Assembly (NCBI RefSeq): GCF_003334385.1
Contig: NZ_QOWN01000015.1
DNA from: Escherichia coli
GTDB taxonomy: Bacteria; Pseudomonadota; Gammaproteobacteria; Enterobacterales; Enterobacteriaceae
DNA length: 64,000 nt
Reading direction: 5' to 3' (one strand)
Shown piece by piece: positions 4,107-13,444 of the stretch. A model generated the notes under the pieces. It ran no database searches and was not told where the DNA came from. It was given only the letters and a program-made list of their open reading frames with translations. Each line of letters opens with the position of its first letter. Within the stretch, counting starts at the first letter, position 1. The position numbers and the translations under genes were made by a program.

Positions 4107-6328
4107 AGCGTTGGTTCCCCCGGCGGTAACGGTTCAGCCGGGGTCGCGCCCGGAGCAGGCAGCACCTGATAAGTCTGCACTGGCGCGCGAACGCCCGCCA
4201 GGTCGAAATGTTTTTTCACCTGGCTGTCGAGGGCAAAGCGTACCGTCCACTGTTTGAGTGGCAGCGTGGTGAACGAAACACGCAGTGTAAACGCGGTATT
4301 GCTTAAGCCGACAATCCCGGCAAAATTCGGTTCACCAATAATCAGCCCGCGAATTTCTTCGTTTTCCATTAATTCCGCTACCGCATCTTTCAGTGCCTGA
4401 TTGGCTTTATCAGCATCTTCATGGCGATCAACATCATAATTTGCCACCACCGAACCAATGCCGCGGACAAAGTTAGCAAAGGTGGTTATCGAAGACCACG
4501 GAATGATGTGATACGCCCCGGTATCCTGTCGTACGCCCACGGAGCGAATCGACATCCGTTCCACTGTGCCGGTCAACGGCCCGATAGTCACCAAATCTCC
4601 AGTGTTCATGCCGTTTTCAAACTGAATAAATACCCCGGTGATAATATCTTTCACCAGCGTTTGCGAACCAAACGAGATAGCCAGACCTAATGCCCCGGCA
4701 CCTGCCAGCAATGGCGCGATATTGACGCCGATTTCCGACAACACAATCATGATGGTGATGGTACTGATAATCACCGCCAGCGCGTTACGAAACAGCGTAA
4801 GCAGGGTACGCGTGCGGGCGCTGGGTAGCGGGCGGCCATGAATATCCGAAGCCAGCCGGTTTTCGATCAAACTGGCGAGCACCGTCCAGCCAACCGCCGA
4901 GAAGAAAAGAATGAGTGCGATACGGATCAGGATATCTACGGTTTTCTGCCCCGCGCCGTTTTGCAGCCAGTTCCAGAAATCGAACAATCCCCATGCGCTC
5001 AACAGCAACATTACCGCCACGCAGACTGTCAGAATACGCGCCGTTTTCAGCGCCGCCGACAGCCAGCCATTCAACCGTTTTTGCAGCTCCGGATAGTTAC
5101 GCTGAGTATGTGGCGAGAGAGTGATGGTTTTCGCCAGCCAGCGGGAAAACATACCGGAAACAAACGCTGCGATACCAATAATCGCCAGGCTGCGCACCGT
5201 TGCACCCATCATAAATTTCAGGCTGTTGCCCGGATCGAACAACGAAAAGAAAAACAGCCCGATAAAATAGGCGCTTGCCAGCCAGTGCCACACCAGCGCA
5301 AAGGCGCGGATAAACAGGCTGAAAAAGGCCAGCGAATGCTCCGCGAAGTTGAGCAAATGCTGGGTAATCTCTTTTTTATTACGAAAGATCAGGTACAACG
5401 CCCAGACGGTCATGCACAGCATAATGATGACGTTCGCCAGCGCACCTATCTGTACATTCACCTGATTAGAGATAATCGGCACGGCCACAATCAGGCCATA
5501 ACCTATCAAACTGCTTAACCAGCTCAGGCGACGACTCCAGTAACGGGCGCTCTCGTCCTGAATCGTGAACGGGCGCAGCTCCGCCACGTTTGGGCAAAAA
5601 ATCAGGCGTAGTACGGCTTTGAAAAATTCAATGAGGGCAAAGGCGTTGAGAAACAAACTTTGTTGGAAAGCGATGGTGCGACTGCCTGCATTCAGGTTGT
5701 CGCTTAATACCTGGCCGACAAATAATGTCAGGGCCAGTAACAGCAGGTCGATAATAAACGCCCCGATAATCATCGCCGGAAGCTGCAACCAGTTGCTGCG
5801 CTCACGATTTTTTTGCCGCGCCCACTGACCCATTTTGCGATACAGCGGCAGTGCGCACAGGCGAATCAGCCAGTAAAAACCAAACACTAATACCGCTAAC
5901 ATTGAAAAATGGGTCAGCGCATTGCTGAAGGTTTGTGGATTAAACGGCTTATGCGGGGAGCCGGTGATATTGCGATAAAGTTGCCCGAAGCGGGCGGAAA
6001 GGGCTTCACCATAATGGCGGCTGACTTCGGTGACCTTTTGCAGCACGGTTTGCTCTTCGACCAGCGTCGGCGGCACTATTTTTGGTACCGGTTCAGCAGG
6101 GGGCGTAGCGGCAACGGTGCGCAACTGGTCGATCAACTCTTTACGCGAGGTGTCATTATCCAGCACATCCGCCAGTGCGCCATAGGCCGCTTTTTTTTGT
6201 TCGATATCCGGTTCCGGGGCCGGTTCAGTCGTTGAGTCCGTTGTCGTTGTGGTTGTAACGCCGGGTATGGATACCGCGTGGGCAGGTGCGCCCAGCAGGC
6301 AGAAGAGGATGAACAGGATCCACCGCAT
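4103..6328 (-). CDS. ybiO: MscS-family mechanosensitive channel YbiO
   Basis: ORF 4103..6355; start chosen at [18 protein letters not shown] (signal-like N-terminus); multiple TM segments and MscS-like C-terminal domain; stop codon overlaps rlmF stop. Confidence 0.85.
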
Positions 6329-6477
6329 GACTCCTCCAGTGAGAAAATAGAGCAAAAGATAAGTATAGATGCTGGAGGAGGGGCGATTTTAAATGAGAGG
6401 AATCTGGTGTGCCTCCCTTTCGGGTGAAAGGGAGGAAGGGATATTAAGCAGGTTGCTGACAACGTGCGGGCTTTTTT

Positions 6478-6577
6478 GCCGGATGCGGCGTGAACGCCTT
6501 ATCCGTCCTACAAGTTCATGCAATTTTAATAAGTTGCCAGATATCCTGTAGGCCTGATAAGCGTAGCGCATCAGGCA
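6478..6577. repeat. REP/BIME cluster (two inverted REP units) between glnQ and ybiO
   Basis: GCCGGATGCGGCGTGAACGCCTTATCCGTCCTACA and TGTAGGCCTGATAAGCGTAGCGCATCAGGCA, canonical E. coli REP sequences in inverted orientation. Confidence 0.8.
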
Positions 6578-6587
6578 ATGTGTCTTA

Positions 6588-7310
6588 TTAAGAGACGTGC
6601 TGCAAAAATTCCTGCAAGCGCTGGCTCGGCGGGTTCTTGATCAACACCTGCGGATTGCCATCTTCCGCAATCCGGCCTTTGTCGATAAAGATCAGCCGCG
6701 AAGCTACTTTCTCGGCAAAACCGATTTCGTGGGTCACGATCACCATCGTCATCCCTTCTTCAGCCAGATCCTGCATAACCTTCAGCACTTCATGGCGCAG
6801 TTCCGGGTCAAGAGCGGAAGTCGGTTCATCAAACAGCATCATTTTCGGCTTCACCGCCAGCGCGCGGGCAATCGCCACACGCTGCTGTTGACCACCAGAA
6901 AGTTCGGAAGGGTAGTGATGTGCACGTTCTGCCAGACCGACTTTCGCCAGCAGCTCACGTGCCAGTTTTTCCGCCTCTTCTTTGTTCGCGCCACGCACGC
7001 GTAGCGGGCCAAACATGACGTTTTCCAGCGCTGTCAGATGCGGGAAGAGGTAAAACTGCTGGAACACCATACCTGCTTCCTGGCGAATCAGGCGCTCGTC
7101 AACTTTCGGATCGTTAACCTTCAGGCCATCGACAATCAGATCGCCGGAGGTGATTTCTTCCAGTTTGTTGATGCAGCGCAGCAGGGTCGATTTACCGGAA
7201 CCGGACGGCCCGATAATCACCACGACTTCGCCCTGGGCAATGTTCAAATCGATATTGTGCAGCACCTGGGTTGGGCCAAAGTGCTTGGAGACGTTTTTAA
7301 ATTCAATCAC
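6588..7310 (-). CDS. glnQ: Glutamine ABC transporter ATP-binding protein GlnQ
   Basis: 240-aa ORF with Walker A (GPSGSGKST), ABC signature (LSGGQQQR) and Walker B ([10 protein letters not shown]). Confidence 0.95.
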
Positions 7311-7966
7311 AGGATTTTCATCCTTCTTTCCAGACGACGCAGAATAAAGCTCAGCACCAGGGTAATAATCAGATAGAACACCGCCACGGCGCTCCAGATC
7401 TCAAGGGCGCGGAAGTTACCGGCAATAATTTCTTGCCCCTGACGGGTCAGTTCCGCCACGCCGATCACAATAAACAGCGAGGTGTCTTTAATGCTGATGA
7501 TCCACTGGTTACCCAGCGGCGGCAGCATACGACGCAGTGCCAGCGGTAAAATGACGTAGCGAATGGTTTCCCAACGTGAAAGACCGAGCGCCAGTCCTGC
7601 TTCACGAAAACCTTTGTGGATAGACAGCACCGCACCACGCGTGATTTCCGCAATATACGCGCCGGAGTTGATCATGATGGTGACCACCGCCGCAGTAAAT
7701 GGGTCGATGCGTAAGTCGTTAAACGCCATCGGCAGGGCGAAATAAATAAACATCACCTGGACGACGATAGGTGTGCCGCGGATCACTTCAATAAAGACCA
7801 GCGCGACGTGGTTGGCTATCCAACCTCCGAAGGTGCGTGCAAAACCTGCCAGCAATCCGATTACCAGACCGCCTGCCAGACCGAGGACCGAAATCCACAG
7901 GGTCATTTTGGCACCTTCAATCAGAAGCGGAATGGCAGGCCAGATGGCACTCCAGTCAAACTGCAT
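7307..7966 (-). CDS. glnP: Glutamine ABC transporter permease GlnP
   Basis: 219-aa polar amino-acid permease; 4-nt overlap with glnQ start. Confidence 0.95.
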
Positions 7967-8016
7967 ATGTTGTTCCTGTTACCGTGGTGTAAATAATCAA
8001 ATTCAGGGTAATTAAT

Positions 8017-8078
8017 GGCCCCGGAGCGGGTTTGCGCCCCTCACCCTAATCCTCTCCCCATAGGGGAGAGGGAACTGC
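8017..8078. repeat. GC-rich palindromic element inside the glnH-glnP intergenic region (resembles the E. coli Box C repeat family)
   Basis: GGCCCCGGAGCGGGTTTGCGCCCCTCACCCTAATCCTCTCCCCATAGGGGAGAGGGAACTGCC with 9-bp stem CCTCTCCCC/GGGGAGAGG; family assignment is from memory of the consensus. Confidence 0.45.
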
Positions 8079-8104
8079 CAGTGCGTTTTACAGGTGTAGC
8101 GTTA

Positions 8105-8866
<762 letters not shown>

Positions 8867-8905
8867 CTATCCACGGGACGATCCCCTGCGTGACATTCAC
8901 ATATA

Positions 8906-8921
8906 TGAAAAAATCGTGCCA
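8906..8921 (-). promoter_or_regulatory. Candidate sigma54 promoter (glnHp2-like): TGGCACG-N4-TTTCA on minus strand
   Basis: Minus-strand TGGCACGATTTTTTCA about 55-70 nt upstream of glnH ATG; -24 element perfect, -12 element imperfect (TC instead of GC). Confidence 0.5.
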
Positions 8922-8994
8922 GTTTTGCAACTCCTTGATTTTTCGAGATGCGGCAAAAACGTGATGCACGATTTATAGGGCAATACCCTGAAGA

Positions 8995-9025
8995 TGCACC
9001 ATTCTGGGGCACCAATCTGGTGCGC
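8995..9025. promoter_or_regulatory. Candidate NtrC binding sites upstream of glnH (TGCACCATTCTGGGGCACCAATCTGGTGCGC)
   Basis: Dyad GCACCA-N3-TGGTGC at 9009..9023 matches the NtrC consensus TGCACCA-N3-TGGTGCA; second overlapping half-site pair just upstream. Confidence 0.55.
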
Positions 9026-9183
9026 TAAAATTGTGCACTCAACACAGTGATTATTTAGCGTAAAACCTGATGAAAAAACAATCTTTATGTAACGATTGTG
9101 TGATGATGTGGATACAAAAAATTTACTTAATCAGCTGGAGATAGCAGATGGATGCACTAAATAAGTGCGTTGAGGTGGGCTGC

Positions 9184-9216
9184 AAAACAAAACGGCCTCC
9201 TGTCAGGAAGCCGCTT
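9184..9216 (-). terminator. Rho-independent terminator downstream of dps
   Basis: Minus-strand GC-rich imperfect hairpin (CGGCTTCCTGACAGGAGGCCG) followed by UUUUGUUUUG. Confidence 0.6.
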
Positions 9217-9254
9217 TTATCGGGTACTAAAGTTCTGCACCATCAGCGATGGAT

Positions 9255-9902
<648 letters not shown>

Positions 9903-10018
9903 TTAGATATATTGATAAGAACAATTCTTATTTATCTGCTCGCCAGGAATTTTCGGAATAAATATGCTTTTGCATAATTCGATATATAAAGACGGTGTAG
10001 AGGAAAAGTAGCGAGAAA

Positions 10019-11866: not shown

Positions 11867-13444
11867 TTTCGGGTCGAAAATATCGGTTCCGAGATGGTTG
11901 TAATCCACCTTCTGTAACTGGAAGTTGGTGATGTATATCGGCCCGGCTTTCTTCTCAGATATAAACGGGTATTTGATGTTAATTTCCTTCGCTTTAATCC
12001 CCGTCCACTGGGAGAAAAAGCCTAAGAAGTCATTGGCTGAGCGGCGGGCTTTAATCACACGATGCGCTTTATCGTCGCTGGAAATGACCATAAAAGGCAC
12101 CTGGAAATTTTGCTGATATTTATCATCATGGGCAAGGTATTGCACGTCTTTACCGCGCTCTTTAAAGGCCAGACCGTGGTCAGAAAAGTAAACCAGCGAG
12201 AAGCTGCTGCCGCTGTTGCGTAACTGATCGTACAGCTTGCGCAGTAAATCGTCCGTTTGCGTCATGGTATAGAGATAGCACGACGTTTCTTTCGATTGCA
12301 CAAAGGTTTCGTATTTTCCTTGTGTCCTGTCGCAGGCCTGCGGATGTGAGCCCATCAGATGTAGAACAATCAGCTGCGGTTGCGAGTGCTCTTGCGCCAG
12401 CACTTGAGCGGTCATATCCAGTAACGCTTCGTCTTTGGTGTTTTTATCTGCTTCAAAATTACCTTCTTTCAGGAAGTACACTTCATCTGCTCGTTTGGCG
12501 ATGCTGGCGATAGCGGTATCGTATTCGCCGATTTGACCCTGGTTGGAAAACCACCAGGTCTGGAAGCCCGCGCGATTTGCCAGGGTGACAAAGTTATCCT
12601 GAAACTGTGGTTTGCCATCGACAACGCGATTGAGCGTTAAGCCAAGCGATTTCTGCGTGGAGCCACTGGCGGCAATGTAGTCAGCAAATATCAAACCGTT
12701 AACGCTGCTGGCAAACGGGGTATTGTCCCAGTGACCGCCAAAGGCACCGAGGGCATCGCGACGCGCGCTTTCACCGATCACCACCACATAGGTCTGATAC
12801 TTCGGCTTAACGGCAGTGACCGTCCAGGTATCTTTCATTCCGGAAAGTTTTGCCATCCGTTCTTGCTCTTCAATCACCTCGTTATTATTGACGATGACAT
12901 CCTTAGCAAAACGAAATACCGGATAGCCAGTATCTTTCAGTTTAAATACGCCACCCCAGGCCAGGTTTTGCACGGGAGCAACAAAAAATGTCGCCACACT
13001 GAATACCAGACACAGGCTGTCGAAGGTATTCCAGCGCGCTTTTTCATTCTCTTTTTTTCGCCTGATTGCTATTACGCCGAGCGCAAAAATAAATAAGCCG
13101 ACCAGGTAGCTGTACCACGGAAAAATCGTCAGGATTTCGGTCGACTCTTCCATATTGGTGGAGTGCAATGCCAGCAATGTATTGAAATTAGGCGCGCCGT
13201 AGGCCTGAGCAAAAGGGAAATAACAAGCCGCCACCAGCGAACTGACACCGACCAGAACTTTTTGTACGCGAGGCAATGTTCGCCATAGCAAAAGCAAAAT
13301 AGCCGTAAACGCAGCGGTGTAGAGCAAACTGAAGGGGTAACCTAAGCCGAGGTTAATTAATAGCGACTGTAAAAAGTAGAACGCAGTCCACGGGCTAAAT
13401 ACCCGGCTACGGGTAACAAGCGATTCTTTGAGGGTTAAATTCAT
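11861..13444 (-). CDS. opgE: Phosphoethanolamine transferase for osmoregulated periplasmic glucans OpgE (YbiP)
   Basis: 527-aa ORF with N-terminal TM domain and sulfatase/alkaline-phosphatase-like C-terminal domain. Confidence 0.88.
   Translation of the reverse strand: MNLTLKESLVTRSRVFSPWTAFYFLQSLLINLGLGYPFSLLYTAAFTAILLLLWRTLPRVQKVLVGVSSLVAACYFPFAQAYGAPNFNTLLALHSTNMEESTEILTIFPWYSYLVGLFIFALGVIAIRRKKENEKARWNTFDSLCLVFSVATFFVAPVQNLAWGGVFKLKDTGYPVFRFAKDVIVNNNEVIEEQERMAKLSGMKDTWTVTAVKPKYQTYVVVIGESARRDALGAFGGHWDNTPFASSVNGLIFADYIAASGSTQKSLGLTLNRVVDGKPQFQDNFVTLANRAGFQTWWFSNQGQIGEYDTAIASIAKRADEVYFLKEGNFEADKNTKDEALLDMTAQVLAQEHSQPQLIVLHLMGSHPQACDRTQGKYETFVQSKETSCYLYTMTQTDDLLRKLYDQLRNSGSSFSLVYFSDHGLAFKERGKDVQYLAHDDKYQQNFQVPFMVISSDDKAHRVIKARRSANDFLGFFSQWTGIKAKEINIKYPFISEKKAGPIYITNFQLQKVDYNHLGTDIFDPKP

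Follow-up and report, generated by a model that had tools for sequence, protein, structure and literature searches.

The 138-nt gap between glnH and glnP in the glnHPQ operon of Escherichia coli carries a copy of the BoxC repeat whose RNA hairpin lies at a dominant mapped RNA 3′ end. We consider it fairly probable that a glnH-only mRNA has its 3′ end set and protected by this hairpin, through a mechanism of the repetitive extragenic palindromic (REP) type, and that GlnH is thereby made in excess over GlnPQ. The operon was examined in a 64-kb stretch of K-12-like E. coli DNA (the window), in which the open reading frame (ORF) list places glnHPQ on the minus strand with dps upstream. The first gene, glnH (coding sequence 8105–8851, minus strand), encodes the periplasmic glutamine-binding protein and matches K-12 b0811 in NC_000913.3 at 100%; the ORF list and the K-12 comparison place after it glnP, for the permease (7307–7966, minus strand), and glnQ, for the ATPase (6588–7310, minus strand). 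Window coordinates equal NC_000913.3 coordinates minus 839153. The gap itself (7967–8104) is 100% identical to that of K-12 MG1655 and many other strains and was found in 5421 of 5426 complete E. coli genomes. RefSeq annotation of K-12 and other strains has no feature inside it, and an Rfam E-value scan of 6000–10000 gave nothing credible at the BoxC element, only chance matches (Antizyme_FSE, E = 2.5; whalefall-1, E = 3).

An earlier note on this DNA had described a perfect 9-bp stem in the gap of this polycistronic operon, and a repeat search confirmed it. The two 9-nt arms, at 8051–8059 (CCTCTCCCC) and 8063–8071 (GGGGAGAGG), are 100% complementary and enclose a 3-nt loop, so that the operon-sense RNA reads CCUCUCCCC-UAU-GGGGAGAGG (8051–8071, minus strand). 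In isolation this RNA hairpin folds at −18.3 kcal/mol with an ensemble frequency of 93%, and none of 200 shuffles folds as well; in the glnHPQ mRNA it begins 35 nt past the glnH stop codon. With 3 or fewer mismatches allowed, the window has one occurrence of the pattern CCTCTCCCCNNNGGGGAGAGG, where shuffles predict 0.01. The span first noted, 8017–8078, takes in most of the repeat (8033–8083) together with a small adjoining GC helix, GGGGCG-CAAACC-CGCUCC (8017–8040, minus strand), which appears in the minimum free energy (MFE) fold of the whole gap, would exist in read-through transcripts only and, by alignment to sister species, is part of the E. coli-specific block described below. A plus-strand ORF of 166 codons with an ATG start (8015–8515) begins in the gap, where it overlaps the flank of BoxC, and extends through glnH in antisense orientation; it lies opposite a highly expressed gene and is probably just a mechanical ORF.

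The identity of the element follows from two matches. Positions 8033–8083 are letter-for-letter the published copy eco:8_BoxC, TGCGCCCCTCACCCTAATCCTCTCCCCATAGGGGAGAGGGAACTGCCAGTG, one of 22 E. coli BoxC members in the supplement of Cozzuto et al. 2008 (PMC2267715). In addition, a family hidden Markov model (HMM) built from the other 21 members, with eco:8 removed to avoid circularity, matches 8037–8079 with E = 2.6e-11 and 39.5 bits. The label "Box C-like" in the earlier note was therefore right, and the genome-wide copies that it had proposed to look for exist: a 74-nt core occurs at a median of 15 places per genome across the 5426 complete E. coli genomes, and at 17 in K-12. Within the window the copy is single, with no further one found by pattern or HMM. 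It is intergenic, its perfect 9-bp stem supplies the palindromic stem-loop characteristic of BoxC, and it is 78% identical to the BoxC consensus CCCCTCACCCTAACCCTCTCCCC-N3-GGGGCGAGGGGAC. By the citations given in PMC2267715, BoxC is a 56-bp repeat of 32 copies (22–32 copies across the literature as it appears there), described by Bergler 1992 and Bachellier 1999 and catalogued since 1992. It is the same family as the PIT elements (Hoyne and Maher 2000/2002) and the TMECO triplex motifs (Holder et al. 2015, PMC4666352), of which the glnH–glnP copy is a degenerate member.

The element is distinct from REP. The gap lacks the REP consensus (GCCGGATG...-type palindromic unit), and the GCCCGG...CCGGGC hairpins of related species do not resemble the BoxC sequence, which is C/T- versus G/A-rich. 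The Rfam model naRNA4, which is derived from REP, matches only outside the gap, at 6447–6508 (minus strand) just downstream of glnQ and below threshold (36 bits, E = 6e-4). This match indicates that glnHPQ ends with a REP-type element, its internal hairpin being BoxC.

In the tables of Adams et al. 2021 (PMC7815308 Supplementary file 1), the dominant Term-seq 3′ end after glnH maps to NC_000913.3 847200 on the minus strand, with the flanking sequence ACACCTGTAAAACGCACTGGCAGTTCCCTCTCCCCTATGGGGAGAGGATT[A]GGGTGAGGGG. This is window position 8047, 4 nt past the stem in the 3′ direction. The 3′-end mapping suggested in the earlier note thus places an RNA end at the hairpin. Two rows for this position give scores of 30331.8 and 130459, comparable to those of the neighbouring ybiI and dps 3′ ends, which are bona fide terminators. 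A diagnostic 15-mer occurs three times in the file of three condition lists (LB OD 0.4, LB OD 2.0 and M63), from which, together with these two rows, we infer that the end is present in all three. The authors removed 847200 from their 5′-untranslated region (UTR) list, which leaves out ends judged to belong to the upstream gene (PMC7815308); in the TERMITe and SMRT-Cappable-seq supplements we found no mention of glnH or of the 847200 coordinates. Between the stop codon and the mapped end lies a 58-nt glnH 3′ UTR (8047–8104, minus strand), which closes with the BoxC hairpin and, after it, four unpaired nucleotides, AUUA; this UTR folds at −20.5 kcal/mol (z = −2.9). We know of no small RNA function for this 3′ UTR. 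The sequence and mapping features expected of a REP-type stabiliser, namely a 3′ end at the base of a hairpin, without a U-tract and after an upstream cistron, are all found at 847200.

How this end arises is the point on which the two leading readings differ. The earlier note had suggested an intra-operon attenuator or an mRNA-stability element, and of these the stability branch fits better. A terminator scan of 8040–8075 on the minus strand returned no terminator-like site, the hairpin tail AUUAGGGU having no U-tract and 3 U in 8 nt, and an intrinsic terminator was accordingly rejected for the E. coli copy, in which the stem is present and the U-tract absent. According to the summary in PMC4666352, earlier Maher-lab experiments detected neither promoter nor terminator activity in PIT/BoxC elements, nor any effect on RNA polymerase. 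Attenuation by transcription termination is weakened on these same two grounds. A processed, protected end is more likely than termination given the missing U-tract, the reported lack of terminator activity in PIT elements, the position of the end 4 nt from the stem, and the recurrence of the same offset at lldD, where the element lies in the other orientation.

The rival with an appreciable, if minor, chance is a partial terminator, either non-canonical intrinsic or assisted by Rho/NusG at a hairpin-induced pause, at which polymerase would stop about 4 nt past the stem in some rounds and so attenuate glnPQ. It would suit an end very near the stem and a site in untranslated RNA 35–58 nt past the stop codon, and it draws further support from the comparison across species given below. 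It fits poorly with the tail and with the reported inactivity of the family as terminators. The absence of 847200 from the Rho-region table of PMC7815308 also speaks against it, as weak and nearly uninformative evidence since that table gives the best position per 800-nt window only.

Under the mechanism that we favour, protection of a glnH-only mRNA, the 9-bp G+C hairpin (about −18 kcal/mol) would form in the glnHPQ mRNA 35 nt past the glnH stop. Cleavage or release of full-length or prematurely ended transcripts would take place downstream, in AU-rich sequence ahead of glnP, and 3′→5′ exonucleases would then trim back and stall at the hairpin, leaving an abundant glnH-only RNA that ends 4 nt past the stem. 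An exonuclease block of this kind, rather than termination, is what the tail and the offset suggest. The glnH mRNA would outlive the glnPQ mRNA, and binding protein would be made in excess over permease and ATPase; the proposed effect on the GlnH:GlnPQ protein ratio would follow from that difference in persistence.

Comparison across enterobacteria points in the same direction. We compared 80 orthologous glnH loci, one per species, giving 81 glnH–glnP gaps in the counts. Hairpins of −10 kcal/mol or stronger are present in 78 of the 81, with a mean of −18.5 kcal/mol versus −7.5 for dinucleotide shuffles, and most begin about 20–35 nt past the glnH stop. They fall into classes unrelated in sequence: REP-like GCCCGG...CCGGGC (35/81), GGGGCG...CGCCCC, mostly followed by a U-rich tail as in canonical intrinsic terminators (24/81), other hairpins (20/81) and BoxC, found in E. 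coli K-12 and Escherichia sp. E1V33 (2/81). The 5′ part of the gap is thus kept in structure and not in sequence. The stem is invariant within E. coli, and the hairpins found elsewhere share no homology with it, which left no basis for covariation analysis. Across these gaps, the retention of a hairpin at a fixed place despite full turnover of its sequence points to selection on structure, and is the strongest argument for it; with at least three unrelated sequence types and a hairpin in 78 of 81 gaps, the comparative picture would be a clean case of selection on RNA structure. The same survey supplies the main support for a partial terminator: 39 of the 81 have 5 or more U among the 8 nt that come after the equivalent hairpin, as in a canonical intrinsic terminator, and at the same position. 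These U-tract-bearing hairpins of other genera probably act by termination, and attenuation by termination may be the ancestral function of the site.

Within Escherichia, the hairpin block itself appears to have been exchanged. E. albertii and strain SCPM-O-B-8794 carry a REP-like hairpin between flanks identical to those of E. coli, and the gap comparison and alignment define a 97-nt block specific to the E. coli lineage (8001–8097, minus strand) in its place. From the identical flanks it follows that the E. coli lineage exchanged its older hairpin block for the 97-nt one. SCPM-O-B-8794, although labelled E. coli, may belong to a cryptic Escherichia clade: its GlnH is 99.6% identical, and its 94-nt gap has an E. 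albertii-like REP-type hairpin and no BoxC, which marks the BoxC block as lineage-specific. By eye, and without a dedicated repeat search, no target-site duplication or terminal repeats resembling the signature of a miniature inverted-repeat transposable element were noticed at the edges of the 97-nt block.

Other BoxC copies in K-12 allow the proposed role to be weighed more widely. The tables of PMC7815308 hold 3′ ends at three of them. The lldD end, at 3781065 (plus strand), lies exactly 4 nt past the stem of TMECO 17; that of yjbD (eco:20), at 4231270 (minus strand), has the same relative position, after GGGGAC; and that of cstA–ybdD (eco:7), at 632098 (plus strand), lies about 10 nt past the stem and has a low score. 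All three RNAs carry the element strand opposite to that in glnH mRNA. Ends in both element orientations argue that an effect of the hairpin, and not a strand-specific sequence, makes the end.

Several observations weigh against a protective role for the hairpin. Term-seq does not tell termination from processing. In the same tables there is no dominant 3′ end at the expected positions of the BoxC copies after adk (a housekeeping gene), pstA, gcvP, zntA and tusA, and at ilvC/ppiC the 3′ ends belong to a separate bidirectional terminator and not to the BoxC position. A BoxC hairpin alone is therefore not sufficient for a 3′ end, and a general rule by which BoxC forms 3′ ends is supported in part only. 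Finally, of the E. coli alleles, a sample of only seven, one weakens the loop-closing pair, although the stem arms are invariant in six and the loop varies (UAU, UCU or GCC), a pattern that speaks for the hairpin.

The copy after pstA is of further interest as a second ABC-transporter operon with an internal BoxC: a canonical BoxC/TMECO element sits in the pstA–pstB interval (NC_000913.3 3908495–3908530), 18 nt past the stop of pstA, and the missing 3′ end there may reflect low expression under the Term-seq conditions. More broadly, the 23 K-12 TMECO elements and the glnH–glnP copy make up 19 loci, of which 10 are co-directional, 7 convergent and 2 divergent; cstA–ybdD (co-directional) and rluF–yjbD (convergent) bring the number to 21. 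At 11 loci the first element begins 10–35 nt past a stop codon. Outside E. coli, Pseudocitrobacter and some other genera have BoxC copies, some as inverted pairs, directly downstream of glnQ (two loci, about 12240–12350), with weaker matches after glnQ in three further loci (about 12236–12327); in those lineages BoxC thus stands at the end of the same operon.

A dispersed repeat may also lie in the gap by chance. On this account BoxC landed or recombined there as a neutral relic, and the 3′ end is the by-product that any stable hairpin would give, with no selected role. BoxC is indeed dispersed and without an established function, occupying about 20 intergenic sites in K-12 in all arrangements and with no orientation bias; TMECO loci are reported to be unusually variable (PMC4666352), and the 78% identity of the glnH–glnP copy to the family consensus marks it as degenerate. 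We nevertheless think a relic unlikely. The gap is fixed in all but 5 of the 5426 genomes, the sampled alleles keep the stem arms and vary in the loop, the BoxC block took the place of an ancestral hairpin that stood equally far from the stop codon, instead of being added to it, and a strong hairpin persists across the species compared despite full sequence turnover.

The degeneracy of the glnH–glnP copy also bears on whether a structure other than the RNA hairpin is at work. PIT/TMECO elements are intergenic, show no orientation bias and are tied to local sequence variability, and in vitro their consensus G-rich strand adopts an intrastrand triplex of great stability, which dimethyl sulfate (DMS) footprinting did not detect in vivo (PMC4666352). 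The TMECO pattern CCCTCNCCC-N3-6-GGGNGAGGG-N3-GGGNGAGGG (PMC4666352) is matched by 19 of the 22 published BoxC copies and by neither strand of the window: the middle block of eco:8_BoxC is GGGAGAGGA, not GGGAGAGGG, and the pattern therefore fails. The copy is also missing from the 23-member MG1655 TMECO table. A canonical G-quadruplex (G4) motif on the G-rich strand (GGGG-AGA-GGG-TTA-GGG-TGA-GGGG, with a telomere-like TTAGGG) is present in 21 of the 22, the sole exception being the glnH–glnP copy. Its stem, by contrast with the commonest K-12 form GGGGCGAGGGG, which has one mismatch, is perfect (GGGGAGAGG). Judged by its sequence, then, the glnH–glnP copy is a BoxC element with an optimal plain hairpin and degraded triplex and G4 potential.

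A structure in the DNA, or one other than a hairpin (an intrastrand triplex, H-DNA, or a G4 on the non-template strand or the nascent RNA), could in principle block polymerases or promote recombination, leaving the RNA hairpin secondary. The stability of the consensus triplex in vitro, its link to local sequence variability and the prevalence of the G4 motif would favour such a structure, and the non-template, RNA-like strand of glnHPQ is the G-rich one. Yet the copy in question fails the triplex pattern and is the one without a G4 motif. In the sense-strand RNA, the G-rich side of the repeat lies 3′ of the hairpin, and sequence and family alignment place the third BoxC segment, RNA GGGUGAGGGG (8037–8046, minus strand), 3′ of the mapped end, so that the stable glnH RNA stops before it. 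The 3′ ends in both element orientations also speak against it, as do the negative DMS footprinting in vivo and the exclusion by nuclear magnetic resonance (NMR) of the G4 that had been considered for the consensus oligonucleotide (Holder et al., PMC4666352). A G-quadruplex was rejected, given the lack of the motif in this copy, the end of the stable RNA upstream of the G-tracts and the NMR result, and a DNA-level structure as a whole is the least probable of the readings considered.

All three published BoxC copies that fail the TMECO pattern (eco:7 at cstA–ybdD, eco:8 at glnH–glnP and eco:20 at yjbD) have Term-seq 3′ ends, and among the 19 pattern-fitting copies lldD has the only confirmed one, in a comparison that is post hoc and incomplete, two sequence matches in the tables not being placed to loci. 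One speculative extension, to which we give a small chance, is domestication: the BoxC block would have replaced the ancestral REP-like hairpin, its stem been perfected and its triplex/G4 segment disabled, yielding an mRNA 3′-end module, and function in the BoxC family would rest with its degenerate copies. If true, this would give BoxC its first physiological role and would mean a repeated, sequence-independent swap of hairpin modules (terminator, REP and BoxC) at a fixed operon position.

Downstream of the mapped glnH end, the gap behaves differently. Its 3′ part, CACCACGGTAACAGGAA, is conserved over the 80 enterobacterial species, and most gaps retain CACGGTA and ACAGGA. Here CACCACGGUAACAGGAAC (7972–7989, minus strand), identified from the gap sequences and from published work, combines the target of the small RNA GlnZ with the glnP Shine–Dalgarno (SD) sequence directly after it; regulation of glnP by GlnZ at this site has been shown experimentally (bioRxiv 10.1101/2022.04.01.486790, PMC9731577). 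The GlnZ/SD site lies downstream of the glnH 3′ end, and the gap sequence upstream of this site shows turnover throughout. By separating glnH from the GlnZ target, the hairpin may insulate glnH from GlnZ-mediated repression of glnP, so that glnPQ could be repressed without loss of glnH.

The proximity of this site raises a translational alternative, in which the block would modulate glnP initiation or GlnZ access, for example through long-range pairing at the glnP SD. In the whole-gap MFE structure CCUGU near the glnH stop does pair with ACAGG at the SD, bracketing BoxC, and GlnZ acts on glnP at the adjoining site. The pairing is 5 bp only, however, and the fold of the entire gap is just marginally better than that of shuffles (z = −2.5); other species retain the SD/GlnZ site under wholly different upstream blocks; and the strong 3′ end would be left unexplained. 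We regard a translational role as quite improbable.

Two further RNA ends lie upstream of glnH. A Term-seq 3′ end at NC_000913.3 848057 (window 8904, minus strand) precedes the start codon of glnH by 53 nt. It falls within TGGCACGATTTTTTCATAT, a sequence resembling the sigma-54 glnHp2 promoter region, and might belong to an upstream transcript that stops in the leader of glnH. The dps Term-seq 3′ end is at 848340 (window 9187), and a weak Rfam match to ctRNA_p42d at 9182–9217 (minus strand, E = 0.007) coincides with the dps intrinsic terminator and is almost certainly a mere terminator hairpin.

The BoxC family, the eco:8 copy (PMC2267715) and the 847200 end (PMC7815308) were already known. 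Our literature searches found no report linking this copy with that end, tying BoxC or glnH–glnP to mRNA stability, or giving BoxC a role. The function proposed here is itself of a known kind, that of an intercistronic hairpin stabiliser or attenuator in ABC-transporter operons. A concrete, testable role for BoxC, like that of REP in malEFG and hisJQMP, follows from tying a fixed, well-expressed copy to an mRNA 3′ end that is precise and abundant; this role would fit the regulation of glnHPQ, in which the transporter core could be repressed or decay while the binding-protein mRNA persists. It is a modest, useful annotation that changes no paradigm.

Set against known elements, the glnH–glnP copy shares with other BoxC repeats the three-segment layout CCCCTCACCC / CCCTCTCCCC / loop / GGGGnGAGGGG, is likewise intergenic and, as at 11 other K-12 loci, begins tens of nucleotides past a stop codon; it differs in its perfect stem, a T for C in the middle segment and its place inside an operon. 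As in PIT/TMECO elements, its G-rich strand consists of a hairpin and a third G-rich segment, but here GGGAGAGGA breaks GGGNGAGGG-N3-GGGNGAGGG, which weakens the triplex/G4 potential while the plain hairpin is strengthened. In the gltI–gltJ region, an internal intrinsic terminator after the binding-protein gene yields SroC. The operon position and the shorter first-gene transcript are alike, and an sroC/gltJ 3′ end stands in the same Term-seq tables; the glnH hairpin differs in having no U-tract and in not being a predicted terminator. The closest parallels are the REP/BIME hairpins in the malE–malF and hisJ–hisQ intercistronic regions, which, as Newbury et al. in 1987 and Stern et al. in 1988 are said to have found, stabilise the upstream binding-protein mRNA. 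The same stabilising effect has been shown for REP325 in yjdMN in a 2026 preprint (bioRxiv 10.64898/2026.03.23.713779). The glnH–glnP element differs from the malE–malF and hisJ–hisQ REP elements in belonging to an unrelated sequence family and in being a single hairpin and not a BIME cluster, and stabilisation of glnH is, for its part, what we infer from the position of the end. In common, they have a repeat-derived GC-rich hairpin after the binding-protein gene of an ABC-transporter operon, a 3′ end at its base, no U-tract and a proposed role as a 3′→5′ exonuclease barrier that makes expression differ along the operon, and relatives of E. coli carry REP-like hairpins at the very same glnH–glnP site.

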